Assembly: GCA_019566835.1 (NCBI GenBank)
Contig: GCA_019566835.1_3045.2
Reading direction: 5' to 3' (one strand)
DNA: 35,772 bases
Origin: a phage
Part shown: piece by piece, positions 6,350 through 33,808 of the stretch
Layout: each line of letters opens with the position of its first letter
Numbering within the stretch: position 1 is the stretch's first letter
Made by a program: the position numbers and the translations under genes
Notes under the pieces: generated by a model
What the model was told of the DNA's origin: nothing
Seen by the model: only the letters and a program-made list of their open reading frames with translations
The model's database searches: none

Positions 6350-6646
6350 TTAATTTCCCTGGCCAAATTGAATCACCTTCAGTTGACGTTTTAGCTCTTT
6401 TATCATCTCTTCGTTCATCGCAATATAAAGATCGCGTAAAGCAGGTTTTAGCATGTCATTTATTATAGAACTAAATGGACATACATAATCTTTTCCTACA
6501 AGCTTTTTAGTAAATTCCATATCACAGAACTTAAATCCCGGCTCATTGGTATAAATTCCCCAATTAGTTGACATCATTTTATTAGCGTATTCCAGTGCCT
6601 GGATTTGATTCATAATTCCATCAATTTGAAACTTTTTAATATTCAT
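6350..6646 (-). CDS. Hypothetical protein (arn.x-position ORF)
   Basis: 98-aa ORF, tiled end to end with neighbouring minus-strand genes. Confidence 0.6.
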   Translation of the reverse strand: MNIKKFQIDGIMNQIQALEYANKMMSTNWGIYTNEPGFKFCDMEFTKKLVGKDYVCPFSSIINDMLKPALRDLYIAMNEEMIKELKRQLKVIQFGQGN

Positions 6647-8079: not shown

Positions 8080-8120
8080 TTTCTAATCTCCGTAATTCTG
8101 TATCAGTAGTTGATAGTTGT

Positions 8121-8150
8121 ATAGTACCACAGTATGCTTTGGTTGTAAAC
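8121..8150 (-). promoter_or_regulatory. T4-type early promoter upstream of motA
   Basis: Minus strand reads GTTTAC, 18 nt, GTGG-TACTAT, with AT-rich UP region 8151-8180. Confidence 0.65.
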
Positions 8151-8174
8151 CGTTTTGTGAAAAAAATTTTTGAA

Positions 8175-8203
8175 ATAAAAAAGGGAGAGCCGAGGCTCTC
8201 CCT
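8175..8203 (-). terminator. Rho-independent terminator
   Basis: Perfect 9-bp GC-rich inverted repeat GGGAGAGCC/GGCTCTCCC followed on the minus strand by a 6-U tract, just downstream of the 49-aa ORF. Confidence 0.7.
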
Positions 8204-11286: not shown

Positions 11287-11400
11287 TCACATAAATCCAA
11301 AGTAAACGTTTAATACATCAATCATTAAAACGATTGGGAATATACTCAAAACTATTAGTATTATAACTACATTCCATATAGCTTTAATAATCTTTTTCAT
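11287..11400 (-). CDS. Tiny membrane peptide (37 aa)
   Basis: MKKIIKAIWNVVIILIVLSIFPIVLMIDVLNVYFGFM with SD GGAGGAA; sits directly downstream of an early promoter. Confidence 0.5.
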   Translation of the reverse strand: MKKIIKAIWNVVIILIVLSIFPIVLMIDVLNVYFGFM

Positions 11401-11428
11401 TTTCTGTTCCTCCGTAGTTGATAGGGTA

Positions 11429-11458
11429 ATAGTACCACGGAAGAACAGTCTTGTAAAC
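11429..11458 (-). promoter_or_regulatory. T4-type early promoter
   Basis: Minus strand reads GTTTAC, 18 nt, GTGG-TACTAT. Confidence 0.6.
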
Positions 11459-11647: not shown

Positions 11648-11907
11648 AGCTCAATCTCAGCGATTTTCATTTCATTACTATTAATAGCCGCTTTAAGACT
11701 ATCTGAAAGAATTACATTCCAGTGGTCATTCATATGACCATTAACTAAGCGTGTAATTTCTTCAGGAGTTGAAAAATAAGGCTGATCAGACTCCCAATGC
11801 GATAATCCTAAGCGAGTATAAATCATGCCTTCATCATCGCTAGAATATTCAACTGACACAAACTCATCAGTTATTTTATGTTTAGCGTAATAAAATTTAA
11901 ATTTCAT
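11644..11907 (-). CDS. Hypothetical protein (87 aa)
   Basis: Start taken at MKFKFYYAKHK with SD GGAGAA, directly downstream of an early promoter. Confidence 0.6.
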   Translation of the reverse strand: MKFKFYYAKHKITDEFVSVEYSSDDEGMIYTRLGLSHWESDQPYFSTPEEITRLVNGHMNDHWNVILSDSLKAAINSNEMKIAEIEL

Positions 11908-11941
11908 TTTATTCTCCAAATCCGTATCAGTTGATAGTTGT

Positions 11942-11971
11942 ATAGTACCACGGTCCTTGTGGCATGTAAAC
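11942..11971 (-). promoter_or_regulatory. T4-type early promoter
   Basis: Minus strand reads GTTTAC, 18 nt, GTGG-TACTAT; overlaps the 3' end of denB. Confidence 0.6.
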
Positions 11972-16202: not shown

Positions 16203-16232
16203 ATTATACCACATCCTTGTGGTAAAGTAAAC
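16203..16232 (-). promoter_or_regulatory. T4-type early promoter for the rIIA.1-rIIA-rIIB unit
   Basis: Minus strand reads GTTTAC, 18 nt, GTGG-TATAAT; the -35 element overlaps the gene 39 stop codon. Confidence 0.65.
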
Positions 16233-18049
16233 TACTGGCTCATCCATTCTTTACGAAGGTCAGCATTATCTCCCATGAGCATTTCAAAAAGCTCTTTCCA
16301 GTTCTCAGGAAGTTTAACAACATCATATACTGGATTTTGAATCATTTCACGATATTCAGATTTTTCCAAAGAGCCAAGTCCTTTAATATAACGGATGCTA
16401 TGTTTAGGTAGAGCATCTTTGGCACTCTCATATTCAGCGACTGTATAAAACCATTCTTGTTTTTTACCGACCTGAGCGATGATTACAGGAGTTTTGACAA
16501 AGCGAATTCGTCCTTGCTCAAACAATTCTGGCCAATTACTAAAAAATCCGAGCAGAGAAGGATAAATGCTTCCTAGACCATCATGGTCAGCATCAGTCAT
16601 AATAGCAATATTGCGATAATTCATGTTTTCAGCTTTTTCACCAAGAACTAATCCAGTGATTGCGCAAATATCAAATAGTTCTTTGTTTTTAAGCATATCT
16701 GCATAAGACATACCCCAACTGTTGAGAACTTTACCACGCAATGGATAACCACCATGAAGTTCTTTATCACGAACATCAATAAGATATCCGATAGCAGAAT
16801 CACCCTCAGTCAAGAAAAGAGTAGTATCAGCATCTTTACCGCACAGATTAGCTTTAATATGTTTATGAACCTTTGCCTTAGAAGCCTTTTTAGCTGCTTT
16901 AGTTTCAGCTGCTTTTTCTGCTGCCAATTTACGAGCTAGTGCAGCTTCAATAATTGGCATTAAAATTGCTTCATTATTTAAAATAGCGCGTGAAATCTTT
17001 TTAGCGTCAAGTTGAATATGACTACGGATTTCACCAAATGGAGAAGTCAAACGCTCTTTAGTTTGAGAATCAAATCGCATGTTTTTCATATCACGAACAA
17101 ACATAACGATAGTCAAACATTCTTTAACGCGTGCTTTAGTTACATCAATTTTGAACTTACGTTTGATTTGTGGAATAAGGTCTTCACAAATATCATCCAT
17201 AACACAGTCAATGTGATGGCCACCATTCTTAGTATGAATGTTATTGACGTATGTTAATTGACGAAATCCATCCGGTGAACGACCAACCGCAATAGAACAA
17301 TTTTCTTGTTCTTGAACAATAGCATGTTCATCATACTGTAGTGCATATTTCTTAAAATTGCCCTGAACCTTTTTACCATTAAAGGTAAATTGAATATCAG
17401 GATAAACAACAGCAAGTGTCTGGAGACGATCTAGTGTAATGTCAAGATAAACTTGGGACAGCTCATTAGTTTCAAATGACATAAAATCTGGAATGAAAGT
17501 AACACGAGTTCCTTTCCATTTTCCAGGAATAGTTTCCCAGGATTTATTTTCCATGCCATTTGAACAACGAACTACAATATTATTTTGACCATCGCCAGTT
17601 TCACCGACAAACATCACAGAAAAAATGTTAGTTAAACTAGAACCAACACCATTCATACCACCGGTGACACGTTCTTTATCATCACCAAAGTTACCACCCG
17701 CTTTTGGAATAGTCCAAGCAGCAACTGGACCAGGAATTTCTTCACCGGTAGGTGTTTTAACCATCGCTTGTGGAATACCACGACCGTTATCTTCAACTGT
17801 TACTTGATTGTTTTTAATAGTAACATTAATTTTATTTGCGAATTTAAACTTAGTACGAATACCTTCATCTACTGAGTTATCGATAATTTCATCAATAAGC
17901 TTAACAAGACCAGGTACATACTGAACACTTTCCCATTTACCAAACAGAAAGCGCTCATGCATTTCATTAGCAGAAGAGCCAATGTACATGCCACTACGCT
18001 TTTTGATATGTTCAATATCGCTCAGAATTTTAATTTCATTCTTAATCAT
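16232..18049 (-). CDS. 39: DNA topoisomerase II large subunit (GyrB-like) gp39, uninterrupted
   Basis: 605 aa from the ATG at 18049 (SD GAGGATAAG; the ORF-track start at 18052 is GTG). N-terminal GHKL ATPase motifs (DEIIDNSVDEG, EDNGRGIP) and a C-terminal Toprim-like region sit in one frame. Confidence 0.92.
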   Translation of the reverse strand: MIKNEIKILSDIEHIKKRSGMYIGSSANEMHERFLFGKWESVQYVPGLVKLIDEIIDNSVDEGIRTKFKFANKINVTIKNNQVTVEDNGRGIPQAMVKTPTGEEIPGPVAAWTIPKAGGNFGDDKERVTGGMNGVGSSLTNIFSVMFVGETGDGQNNIVVRCSNGMENKSWETIPGKWKGTRVTFIPDFMSFETNELSQVYLDITLDRLQTLAVVYPDIQFTFNGKKVQGNFKKYALQYDEHAIVQEQENCSIAVGRSPDGFRQLTYVNNIHTKNGGHHIDCVMDDICEDLIPQIKRKFKIDVTKARVKECLTIVMFVRDMKNMRFDSQTKERLTSPFGEIRSHIQLDAKKISRAILNNEAILMPIIEAALARKLAAEKAAETKAAKKASKAKVHKHIKANLCGKDADTTLFLTEGDSAIGYLIDVRDKELHGGYPLRGKVLNSWGMSYADMLKNKELFDICAITGLVLGEKAENMNYRNIAIMTDADHDGLGSIYPSLLGFFSNWPELFEQGRIRFVKTPVIIAQVGKKQEWFYTVAEYESAKDALPKHSIRYIKGLGSLEKSEYREMIQNPVYDVVKLPENWKELFEMLMGDNADLRKEWMSQ

Positions 18050-18076
18050 CACTTATCCTCGTTTGGTTTCGGGAAT

Positions 18077-18937: not shown

Positions 18938-19363
18938 TTATTCCTTAAAGTGTGCTTTCAGCATTTGATACAAGGACCATGCCTGTTCATTATTTTCAAT
19001 AGTAACTTTCATGACAGGAAATTCTGTGAAATCTTCTATTTGTTCTTGCTCTTTCTCTTCCTGCTCTTGCTCTTCAGCTGCCTGATATGGATTTTCCACT
19101 TCATCAAAGAACTCGGCTTCGTTAGTAGAGAGCCAGATAAAGTTTTCGTCAAGGATATCACCATGTGTTGCATATCCAATTGTGCCAGTAAATGACATAA
19201 TTTTAGTAGGACGACCAAGATGGTCAACATCTAAAATTTTAAAAGGATGCATACCTAAACGTCGTGCATAAATTCCGTTATCAGTATGGTCTTTAATAAA
19301 AGCTTCTTGAGCTTGTTTATTTTTAAATTGATACCATTTATTAACTTCAAATCTAATAGCCAT
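18938..19363 (-). CDS. Hypothetical protein (141 aa)
   Basis: Start taken at [11 protein letters not shown] with SD GGAAGGA; acidic E/Q-rich linker. Confidence 0.65.
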
Positions 19364-19578
19364 TAATAAATTTCCTTCCAATAAGTTGTACCATCTTCAG
19401 TAATTTCGCGAAATACACCGTAAATTGGTTGTTTATCACCAACCTTTTCATACACATAAACCGAAGTCAAGTGAGTAAACTTAACGGTATGTTCTTTTTG
19501 AACTACTACCAAATCTGGATCGAATAATACATCTTCAAATTCGTCATTAGTGCAATTCTGAACAATTTTACGTTTCAT
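19363..19578 (-). CDS. Hypothetical protein (71 aa)
   Basis: ORF tiled between neighbouring minus-strand genes. Confidence 0.6.
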
Positions 19579-19591
19579 TACAATTTCCTCA

Positions 19592-19861
19592 TTAATTGAA
19601 CAGTGGAGCGATGCGTTTCAGAAGAGTAGCAGCACCTTTAGCGAATTTTACATCATGAAAAACAGTTTCTTCTTCTGTAACAACTCGAACTTTAATATTT
19701 TCACAATCCCAATTTTTACGAACAATCTTCAAAAGCTGCAGTAAATCTTTACATTCAGCAATATCGATAACACATCCACGAGAATCTTCCATTATCGCAC
19801 GATAACCGTAAGCCATACCATAATCATTGAAAGATTGCTCGATGATAATTAAGTTTTCCAT
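19592..19861 (-). CDS. Hypothetical protein (89 aa)
   Basis: Start taken at MENLIIIEQ with SD GGAGAATAAA. Confidence 0.6.
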   Translation of the reverse strand: MENLIIIEQSFNDYGMAYGYRAIMEDSRGCVIDIAECKDLLQLLKIVRKNWDCENIKVRVVTEEETVFHDVKFAKGAATLLKRIAPLFN

Positions 19862-19885
19862 TTTATTCTCCAAGTTGTTTTCTGT

Positions 19886-19928
19886 ATCAGTAGTTGATAT
19901 TGATATAGTACCATAATCAACTACTGAT
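19886..19928 (-). promoter_or_regulatory. Promoter-like element with extended -10 inside a 13-bp inverted repeat
   Basis: Minus strand reads TGG-TACTAT with no GTTTAC at -35; the -10 is bracketed by ATCAGTAGTTGAT and ATCAACTACTGAT. Confidence 0.35.
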
Positions 19929-19968
19929 GTATATAGTTTTATGAAAAAAATTTAAACTTTATGCAAAT

Positions 19969-20388
19969 TTATGCTAAAGCTGCTTCGCACCATTTTTTAA
20001 TTTGGAATTCAGGAACTACCATGAACTGGCCTGCAAAAACAATATTGTAGAGCTTGACACCATCTTCTACCCAACGGTCCGAAATAAAACCAGCGACTTG
20101 ATTCGTTGTCCATGGAGTTCCATCTGTTGCCGCCGCAATTGTGAATTTATGGTCTTTTACAACTAAAACTGAAGAACAAAGTTTCCATTTAAATGCGCTT
20201 TCTTCTGGCTCAATGAACTGACTTGAGACATAACCAATGTTACCATCAGCGTCACGAACTTTAACCTCGTTACGACCAAAAACTGGATCACTTACAGAAA
20301 GAACTTCAACCAGCTTTCCTGCAACTTTAGAACGAGAAGCAACGGATACATATACGTAATCACCAGTAGAGAGATTTGCAATATTCAT
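19969..20388 (-). CDS. Hypothetical protein, paralog family member A (139 aa)
   Basis: SD AAGGA. Shares the N-terminal SRSK-AG-LVEV block and the C-terminal GF-TD-W-EDG-KLYNIVF module with the next gene. Confidence 0.7.
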   Translation of the reverse strand: MNIANLSTGDYVYVSVASRSKVAGKLVEVLSVSDPVFGRNEVKVRDADGNIGYVSSQFIEPEESAFKWKLCSSVLVVKDHKFTIAAATDGTPWTTNQVAGFISDRWVEDGVKLYNIVFAGQFMVVPEFQIKKWCEAALA

Positions 20389-20397
20389 AATAATTCC

Positions 20398-20871
20398 TTA
20401 AGCTTTACGAGGAGAAGCATAACGAGTGATTTCAGATTCTTCAACAACCCGGAAGTCACCTAAGAATACGATATTGTAGAGCTTTTCACCATCTTCAACC
20501 CATTGGTCTGTGATGAAGCCACACATCCTATCAGTTTTACTTGGACCAGCGAAATCATCAATATAATCGAATTCTTCATCAGTTACAAATTCAACGCCTT
20601 TACACAACGCCCATTTAAATTGTGTATTAGACTCAGTGGATTCAACTTCTTCAACAGAAGCAAAATGAGAGCTAACACGAGTTTCCAGAAATTTAGGACT
20701 TACGTAAGCGTACTGAGTTTCAGTTTTTCCAGAACCAGGAATGATTCGAACTTTAACTTCTTTAACACGACCAGTACCATTAGTACGAAGTCCTACCACT
20801 TCAACTAGACGACCTGCAGCTTTAGAACGAGATGCAGACGATACACGCTTAATTTCACCGATAGTAATCAT
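20398..20871 (-). CDS. Hypothetical protein, paralog family member B (157 aa)
   Basis: Start taken at MITIGEIKRV, because the longer in-frame ATG lies inside the upstream promoter. Same conserved N- and C-terminal blocks as member A. Confidence 0.7.
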   Translation of the reverse strand: MITIGEIKRVSSASRSKAAGRLVEVVGLRTNGTGRVKEVKVRIIPGSGKTETQYAYVSPKFLETRVSSHFASVEEVESTESNTQFKWALCKGVEFVTDEEFDYIDDFAGPSKTDRMCGFITDQWVEDGEKLYNIVFLGDFRVVEESEITRYASPRKA

Positions 20872-20914
20872 AATTTTTCTCTCTTTGTTGTTAAGATTTA
20901 TACTCCGCAGGACC

Positions 20915-20944
20915 ATTATACTCTGGTCCCAAGAGTTTGTAAAC
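20915..20944 (-). promoter_or_regulatory. T4-type early promoter
   Basis: Minus strand reads GTTTAC, 18 nt, TATAAT, with a second GAGTATAAAT about 20 nt downstream. Confidence 0.55.
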
Positions 20945-33247: not shown

Positions 33248-33275
33248 GATAATCTCCTCAGTAGTTTATGTTTAT

Positions 33276-33305
33276 ATAGTATCTCAATTTCCAACAAAAG
33301 TAAAC
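33276..33305 (-). promoter_or_regulatory. T4-type early promoter upstream of sp
   Basis: Minus strand reads GTTTAC, 18 nt, TACTAT. Confidence 0.6.
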
Positions 33306-33749: not shown

Positions 33750-33778
33750 AACAATCTCCTCATTTAACCAACAAGACT

Positions 33779-33808
33779 ACTATACCATAGTCTTGTCAGC
33801 TTGTAAAC
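33779..33808 (-). promoter_or_regulatory. T4-type early promoter upstream of dmd
   Basis: Minus strand reads GTTTAC, 18 nt, TATAGT; the -10 sits inside a 9-bp inverted repeat (ACAAGACTA/TAGTCTTGT) and the -35 overlaps the gene 41 stop. Confidence 0.6.

Follow-up and report, generated by a model that had tools for sequence, protein, structure and literature searches.

The phage contig GCA_019566835.1_3045.2 (NCBI GenBank assembly GCA_019566835.1) is a stretch of 35,772 nucleotides, hereafter the window, and represents a segment of a Tequatrovirus genome (RB51/T4-like) with 98-99% identity to RB51, RB3, T2-like and T4-like phages. Upstream of its cef gene, which encodes a modifier of suppressor tRNAs, a 13-bp inverted repeat encloses the -10 element of a putative early promoter. 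We confirm that this inverted repeat is real and not a product of chance, and our sequence comparisons indicate that its stem is kept by selection, most likely in the form of RNA. At the sequence level the element is a PeSL-type (promoter-early stem-loop) cassette, a kind that is already known. We consider it moderately likely that it also works as one, in which a selected stem-loop acting in read-through RNA encloses both the start and the extended -10 of a sigma-70 early promoter.

The two arms, ATCAGTAGTTGAT (19886-19898) and ATCAACTACTGAT (19916-19928), are perfect reverse complements of 13 bp lying 17 nt apart, just as a sequence-only reading of the window had described them. The repeat extends imperfectly to arms of 20 nt, with 17 of the 20 positions paired around a 3-nt centre. 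No other perfect inverted repeat with a spacer of 3-50 nt reaches 13 bp anywhere in the window, for which a first-order Markov model predicts a mean of 0.07 such repeats and yields at least one in 4% of simulations. The stem is A/T-rich, with 4 G-C pairs among the 13, and each arm is internally ATCA-N5-TGAT. An 89-nt minus-strand RNA folds at -23.6 kcal/mol (z = -6.1) into a structure that contains the hairpin, while the repeat region has a z of -5.1 as single-stranded DNA and of only -2.7 as plus-strand RNA.

Read in the sense of transcription, the minus strand carries motB, a motB-like gene, the repeat, an open reading frame (ORF) of 89 amino acids, cef, goF, 39.2, 39.1 and a fused 60+39. 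Given transcription of this strand, the 5' arm is 19928-19916 and the 3' arm, or leader, is 19898-19886. The layout reads TAA(stop)-ATTTGCATAAAGTTTAAATTTTTTTCATAAAAC-TATATAC-[ATCAGTAGTTGAT]-TA-TGG-TACTAT-ATCAAT-[ATCAACTACTGAT]-ACAGAAAACAACTT-GGAG-AATAAA-ATG, with the arms set in an additional pair of brackets, and has the following parts:

19935-19968, minus strand: A/T-rich upstream tract AAATTTGCATAAAGTTTAAATTTTTTTCATAAAAC, UP-element-like, between the stop codon of the motB-like gene and the -35
19928-19933, minus strand: -35-like hexamer TATACA (ATATAC in the frame 19929-19934), 17 nt upstream of TACTAT
19916-19928, minus strand: 5' arm, ATCAGTAGTTGAT, in the promoter spacer just after the -35-like hexamer; unique to the cef cassette
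19899-19915, minus strand: 17-nt centre TATGGTACTATATCAAT, with TG at 19913-19912 and the -10 hexamer TACTAT at 19910-19905
19901-19902 (TG) and 19904-19909 (hexamer), plus strand: mirror reading of the centre, TGaTATAGT
19886-19898, minus strand: 3' arm, ATCAACTACTGAT, the conserved leader (initially transcribed sequence) of a repeated early-promoter cassette
19859-19885, minus strand: rest of the leader, ACAGAAAACAACTT, including GGAG (19871-19868) as Shine-Dalgarno and the start codon ATG (19861-19859) of the 89-amino-acid ORF

Promoter activity is predicted here from the sequence. The extended -10, TGgTACTAT, agrees with the T4 early -10 motif quoted in the literature, TGTG(A/G)TA(C/T)(A/T)AT, and TATACA lies at the standard 17-nt spacing with one mismatch to the T4/PST cassette consensus TTTACW-N17-TAYWAT given by Comeau et al. 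(2014, PMC4122927). By the usual distance of 7 nt, the sense start is expected at A19898, where the 3' arm begins. The sequence-only reading had taken the upstream arm to replace the usual -35 GTTTAC; this does not hold, as the arm occupies the spacer and the -35 position is filled by ATATAC/TATACA, 17 nt from TACTAT. A terminator scan found no terminator-like site between the motB-like gene and the promoter.

Much of this promoter is shared with other early promoters. Paralogous cassettes lie in the window at ~8096-8169, 11400-11437, 11897-11950 and 33258-33281, and another is found upstream of e.8 in T2L. Common to these four and the T2L cassette are an A/T tract, TGgTACTAT, a leader of the form ...CTATCAACTACTGATACAG and a Shine-Dalgarno sequence. 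The extended -10 inside the 17-nt centre aligns with the paralogous cassettes of the window and of T4/T2, and the 13-mer of the leader, or a near-copy, follows other early promoters at ~8102, 11410 and 33257; the earlier recognition of an extended -10 and of one arm as a conserved early leader was thus correct. The paralogous cassettes differ from the cef cassette in having GTTTAC at -35 and unrelated spacers at the position of the 5' arm. In comparison with the e.8 cassette of T2L, the upstream tract is identical at 18/21 positions and the stretch from the leader arm to ATGGA at 42/42, against 23/37 for the region from the -35 to the start.

Two side observations concern these cassettes. At ~8177-8202 (minus strand) the window holds a terminator-like hairpin, GGGAGAGCC-TCG-GCTCTCCC followed by T6, directly upstream of an early cassette whose leader is ATCAACTACTGATACAG and whose GTTTAC is at ~8150; the stem thus stands upstream of the promoter, in the alternative PeSL layout. 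In the T2 record AP018813.1 (6093-6112) the leader arm is labelled 'attL'. We rejected an integration site there, as the label was apparently assigned automatically because the sequence is repeated.

The evidence that carries our interpretation comes from the cef loci of other genera. We compared those of Mosigvirus, Dhakavirus, Kanagawavirus, Marfavirus and Gaprivervirus together with 33 contigs from IMG/VR. In these genera cef is the gene directly 3' of the equivalent promoter and stem, the motB-cef spacer is only 50-75 nt long, and the promoter is a standard GTTTAC/GTATAC one. At nearly all of these loci a stem brackets the extended -10, and it is built from different bases. Relatives with an ordinary -35 and no palindrome would have refuted the sequence-only reading; the opposite was found, with GTTTAC present at -35 and a palindrome as well. 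The stems are listed below as 5' arm / loop / 3' arm:

Mosigvirus: GGTCTAT / GATACT / ATAGACC
Marfa: GGTAGGAGC / GTGATACTAT / GCTCCTACC
Kanagawavirus: GGTGTAGGA / CCATGATACTATGT / TCCTACACC
Dhakavirus: GGTAGGGTA / GTGATAAGAT / TACCCTATC
A further lineage: AGGGCTAT / GATACT / ATAGCCCT; sister lineage: AGGGTTAT / ATAACCCT
IMG/VR contig L110: GGTAGAAGAC / TGTGATACTATG / GTCTTCTACC
IMG/VR contig L105: GGTGTAGGAG / CATGGTATAGTA / CTCCTACACC

Covariation was measured on 20 distinct cef-upstream promoters, aligned with MAFFT and anchored only on the -35 and -10 hexamers, with one gap column. The helix tested was a single one of 13 pairs, drawn up around the dyad axis that the sequences share, between -12 and -11. 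Paired cells amounted to 79%, as against 30-53% when the 3' partner was slid by 1-3 columns, and 9 of the 13 pairs had changed on both sides, as against 1-6 in the slid controls. The covariation score was 0.387, compared with 0.168 in shuffles, and none of 500 shuffles reached it. At the remaining promoters of these short loci, the bracketing repeats reach only 3-5 bp. Most departures from perfect pairing within the stems read G-T, not A-C, on the sense strand, which weakly favours sense RNA over a cruciform as the form in which the stem works. The T4-type stem has arms unrelated to those of the other genera and a dyad axis at -9, a shift of ~2.5 bp; therefore its pairing was re-created after a change of cassette and not inherited base by base. 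Gaprivervirus has a hairpin, GATAGGG-TAATTTTG-CCCTATC, 3 nt before the cef Shine-Dalgarno and no recognisable -35/-10, so that judging from sequence its stem appears to have outlasted the promoter.

These observations suggest how the element may work. Read-through transcripts from motB, if not terminated, would hold both arms and could form a hairpin of 18 pairs, whereas RNA from the embedded promoter would take its start with the 3' arm, lack the hairpin and have an open leader. Because promoter-initiated RNA is expected to start at the 3' arm, the hairpin would be restricted to read-through RNA and would mark long transcripts only, acting at the gene junction as an attenuator or insulator, or as an element of stability or translation. 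Folding predictions are consistent with this: the hairpin is within the minimum-energy fold of the read-through RNA in all 12 lineages tested, and the promoter-initiated RNA is essentially unstructured. The stem probably sits around the -10 since the compact intergenic space would leave only the spacer and the initially transcribed bases free.

The Shine-Dalgarno sequence GGAG lies 16 nt 3' of the stem, outside the helix, and is touched only by a weak outer helix (UUUUUCA with UGGAGAA). Its predicted probability of being unpaired averages 0.57 in read-through and 0.86 in promoter-initiated RNA for the window, and is 0.24 versus 0.60 in some lineages. For example, in five IMG/VR cef-upstream regions (L100, L102, L104, L109 and L111) the spacer 5' of the stem, CTTTCCTT, is complementary to the cef Shine-Dalgarno GAGGAAA, and in this lineage the predicted chance of an unpaired ribosome-binding site drops from 0.6 for promoter-initiated to 0.24 for read-through RNA. 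From these models CTTTCCTT is a possible anti-Shine-Dalgarno candidate, and it is not seen in Dhakavirus or Marfa.

Several points weigh against this interpretation. The stem is A/T-rich and followed by ACAGAAAAC and not by a U-run, and the stems of relatives are followed by A/C-rich sequence, so that it does not qualify as a canonical intrinsic terminator. The Shine-Dalgarno stands outside the stem, and its predicted occlusion depends on the lineage, with no effect in Dhakavirus or Marfa. Covariation alone is no proof of a hairpin, as a co-evolving palindromic operator gives the same symmetry, and since most early promoters of Marfa have such stems, the covariation seen at cef may be inflated by cassette exchange between loci. 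Finally, inside Tequatrovirus the sequences are too alike to reveal selection on the arms.

The distribution of the design differs strongly between genera. Long bracketing repeats occur at 2 of the 11 pattern-defined early promoters of the window and at 2 of 9 in the first 50 kb of T4, and in both phages these are the cef-upstream and the dmd promoters. The dmd promoter of the window (33771-33808, minus strand) lies between gene 41 and dmd, with GTTTAC at 33808-33803 and a perfect 9-bp stem, ACAAGACTA (33796-33788) and TAGTCTTGT (33779-33771), around TGGTATAGT; T4 has a 10-bp version at ~20.6 kb. No intergenic promoter before dmd was found in the relatives from Mosigvirus, Mizar and RB49, and the dmd stem therefore falls outside the covariation comparison. 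In the Klebsiella phage Marfa (MN044033.1, 1-50000), 7 of 9 pattern-defined early promoters have a 6-12 bp repeat around the extended -10; five of the nine have repeats of 8-12 bp, every one with its own arms. The arms differ between its early promoters (GGTAGGAGC, GTGTAGGAGC, TGTAAGAGCA and GGTGTAGAAGT), and all Marfa stems have A/C-rich sequence on the 3' side and no U-run. At the level of sequence, a stem over the -10 is the rule in Marfa's genus and residual in Tequatrovirus.

Within Tequatrovirus the element is nearly invariant. The identical 43 bp lie between motB and cef in T4 (6582-6624). Of 534 matching phage records, 498 hold the 60-nt element whole, 431 of them in identical form; Tequatrovirus-type cef is present in ~499 records, and the element is carried by 498 of these. 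We read five variant records in detail. An arm is altered in just one, where A has become G in the 5' arm and a G-U pair is left in sense RNA; in two the change lies in the centre (TATGG has become TATAG or TGTGG), and in one it lies in the leader outside the arms. In phage Pinarejo (PP925831.1, 5885-5944) the whole 17-bp centre is inverted and both arms are unchanged. The flipped allele reads TGaTATAGT, still exactly 17 nt from TATACA, and because the centre is quasi-symmetric it retains a usable extended -10. The flipped form was found in 1 of ~500 phage records and in 0 of 9 metagenome orthologues; the latter come from a scan with the 18-mer upstream flank that returned 67 loci, 9 of them true orthologues and all 9 in standard orientation. 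A pattern scan of IMG/VR for the element found 2 contigs only. The inversion may be an assembly artefact; taken at face value, Pinarejo suggests that the arms can mediate inversion of the centre.

Comparison with described systems places the element among the PeSLs. In Arbiol et al. (2010, PMC2839356), PeSLs are defined in RB49/phi1 and associated with ORF indels, their stems are ascribed terminator or attenuator activity, with positions that include overlap with the -10, and one stem cut lacZ expression like rrnB T1, a strong terminator. Comeau et al. (2014, PMC4122927) extend PeSLs to PST/T4 with stems just upstream of the promoter, and AT-rich upstream regions belong to the definition in both papers. 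The cef-upstream element is intergenic, lying between a stop codon (19969-19971) and the ATG that begins at 19861, and combines an A/T tract after the stop, sigma-70-like -35 and -10 elements (TATACA-17 nt-TGgTACTAT), a perfect 13-bp stem over the -10 that stands out as both RNA and DNA, and a Shine-Dalgarno and start codon at its end. It also belongs to a set of near-identical repeated cassettes and adjoins an ORF that some close relatives have and others have lost by deletion: the 89-amino-acid ORF is intact in the window, RB51 and SholemSchwarzbard and internally deleted in T4, Pinarejo, Sfk20, SG1 and G29, where the first few and the last ~15 codons are left. It differs from the PeSLs of T4/PST in that its stem encloses the -10 and start and does not lie upstream of the promoter, a configuration described in the available PeSL texts for RB49/phi1 and not for the T4/PST pair. 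In addition, unlike the PeSLs as described, its stem is long, perfect and A/T-rich, not G/C-rich, has no U-run, and shares one arm with a common leader.

Another comparison is with T4 e, soc, 49 and I-TevI, where, as reviewed in PMC3014915, an inhibitory RNA hairpin has a promoter within its 5' strand. As at those genes, long transcripts that come from upstream of the element would hold both strands of the hairpin, and RNA from the embedded promoter, with the start predicted here, would be without the 5' strand. However, the e, soc, 49 and I-TevI promoters are late ones and their Shine-Dalgarno and/or AUG lies within the helix, whereas the cef-upstream promoter is of early type and has its ribosome-binding site 16 nt beyond the stem, with neither Shine-Dalgarno nor AUG sequestered.

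The symmetry of the centre also recalls other kinds of element. Symmetric bidirectional bacterial promoters have overlapping -10s, and starts 18 bp apart are the commonest according to Warman et al. (bioRxiv 10.1101/2020.01.31.928960). Here, too, the -10 hexamers overlap on opposite strands with predicted starts 18 bp apart, but the symmetry runs 13 bp further on each side and there is no divergent gene. Minute inversions of hairpin loops between short inverted repeats occur in chloroplast non-coding DNA, and Ripley's work on T4 rII reportedly dealt with quasi-palindrome templated mutation. The Pinarejo allele resembles such minute inversions in that a 17-bp segment between 13-bp repeats is flipped in one natural isolate, and it differs from them in that the flipped segment is a promoter -10 whose TGn and TAnnnT are kept at the same spacing. 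With no recombinase annotated nearby and the flipped form as rare as given above, the element does not look like an inverton, and at 17 bp the segment is far below the size of known invertons.

The sequence-only reading had offered three interpretations of the palindrome, as an operator for a dimeric regulator, as a cruciform, or as the scar of an inversion between two promoter cassettes, and none of the three is the best one. On the operator reading, a dimeric regulator, probably encoded by the phage, would bind over the -10 and start and so silence the promoter. The perfect dyad centred on the -10 and the ATCA-N5-TGAT form of each arm would suit it, the gene immediately upstream is annotated as a MotB-like transcriptional regulator, the mechanism of T4 early-promoter shut-off is described in the literature as unresolved, and a co-evolving pair of protein and operator would likewise keep the half-sites complementary. 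Yet the arms differ completely from genus to genus, and with loops of 6-17 nt and arm centres ~14 to 30 bp apart, half-site spacing is not conserved among the homologous promoters. Within the single genome of Marfa, the early promoters have several different stems that one regulator could not all read. The variable loops and the arms differing within one genome therefore argue against a protein with fixed half-site geometry, and fit a nucleic-acid hairpin better. MotB is moreover reported as a non-specific DNA binder, and the sole arm variant seen yields a G-U pair. We consider an operator highly unlikely. An inversion scar finds no support either, given that the stem occurs throughout the genus and that other genera have equivalents of it. 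A symmetric element acting at the DNA level, as a bidirectional promoter core serving the ORF and cef in sense and motB in antisense, and/or as a cruciform or invertible segment, is in our view quite unlikely. It would account for TGaTATAGT on the plus strand, for predicted starts at 19898 (minus) and 19916 (plus) in the commonest bidirectional geometry, in which -7T pairs with -11A of the other strand, for two predicted transcripts that open with the same 13 nt, and for the flipped centre of Pinarejo with its promoter signals at the right distance from TATACA. However, the antisense side lacks both an A/T-rich upstream tract and a -35 (TCTGTA stands in its place), none of the ORFs is a plus-strand gene that the antisense direction of the repeat would serve, the mirror-strand hexamer of relatives is without TG, the rarity of the flip shows no population-level switch, no recombinase gene is annotated nearby, and in a cruciform the sense G-T wobbles would turn up as A-C mismatches on the opposite strand.

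The stem may alternatively be a neutral by-product, in which a one-step intrastrand template switch in the T4 lineage, by quasi-palindrome correction, copied the complement of the leader into the unconstrained spacer to give a 5' arm with no function of its own, which would persist only through the youth of the genus. All 14 differences from the closest paralog fall within the 37 nt from the -35 to the start, between flanks identical at 18/21 and 42/42 positions; spacers vary freely among cassettes; Tequatrovirus genomes have 95-99% identity here, so that conservation inside the genus says little; Pinarejo shows that the arms interact during DNA metabolism; and only 2 of the 9-11 early promoters of T4 or the window have stems. 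On the other hand, a stem stands upstream of cef in at least 8 other lineages with compensatory changes, its return in the T4 lineage with new bases would be improbable without selection, and shuffling of the spacer gives 13 bp in ~1/10,000 trials, so that we hold this origin to be unlikely. A plain intrinsic terminator of the motB-like gene, overlapping the next promoter by chance, seems extremely unlikely. The position is intergenic and after a stop codon, the PeSL authors assign terminator or attenuator activity to such stems (PMC2839356), and another cassette of the window has a true GC hairpin and T6 just upstream of its promoter; but the G+C-rich stem and U-tract of a Rho-independent terminator are absent, with 4/13 G-C pairs followed by ACAGAAAAC, the terminator scan of the window is negative here, and the stems of relatives are also followed by A/C-rich sequence. 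We set aside an RNase III site as well, given that the stems of relatives, with only 7-12 bp, are short for an RNase III substrate. Compared with these alternatives, the PeSL-type cassette with a selected stem-loop acting in read-through RNA remains our preferred reading. A further reading, which we regard as unlikely, would see a conserved non-terminator device that yields two mRNA classes at one junction, structured read-through RNA and unstructured promoter-initiated RNA, joined in the T4 lineage by a symmetric, two-strand, flippable core.

The surrounding genes, all on the minus strand, are as follows:

20398-20916: motB, 172 amino acids
19969-20388: motB-like paralog, upstream of the repeat, 139 amino acids, annotated MotB-like
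19969-19971: stop codon of the motB-like gene
19592-19861: ORF of 89 amino acids, function not known, the first gene after the promoter (phrog_3720, RB51ncORF009c)
19363-19578: cef

The tandem motB-like genes of the window (19969-20916) resemble each other over 93 nt at 71% DNA identity and have several shorter repeats in common, and T4 has a single motB in the place of the two. The topoisomerase large subunit of the window (16232-18052, minus strand) is one ORF of 606 amino acids, annotated 60plus39 in RB51, and is without the mobA/gene 60 insertion that splits its T4 counterpart. An Rfam search of 19300-20300 gave no family match at E up to 1. A replication origin at the repeat was rejected, as T4 oriA is annotated at 16.8 kb. 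The arm sequences were not found printed in a phage context in the literature searched, and the literature on MotB, DksA, omics and post-transcriptional control made no mention of cef, goF or the cef-upstream promoter.

The element is no new kind of system; rather, it extends the PeSL concept to T4 itself. It bears on what limits read-through between the dense early genes of this reference phage and on how early expression is tuned there. With pairing conserved through compensatory changes from genus to genus, and built anew from other bases in the T4 lineage, the stem turns from a curiosity into a concrete, testable hypothesis. The 17-bp inversion in Pinarejo provides a small, clean natural case of a hairpin-mediated rearrangement that spares the promoter signals. 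If the non-terminator reading were true, the device would set the stability or translation of the downstream RNA-metabolism genes cef/goF, and likewise of dmd, and the T4-lineage element would be a minimal, recombinase-free 'flippable' promoter that fires on both strands and tolerates inversion of its centre.

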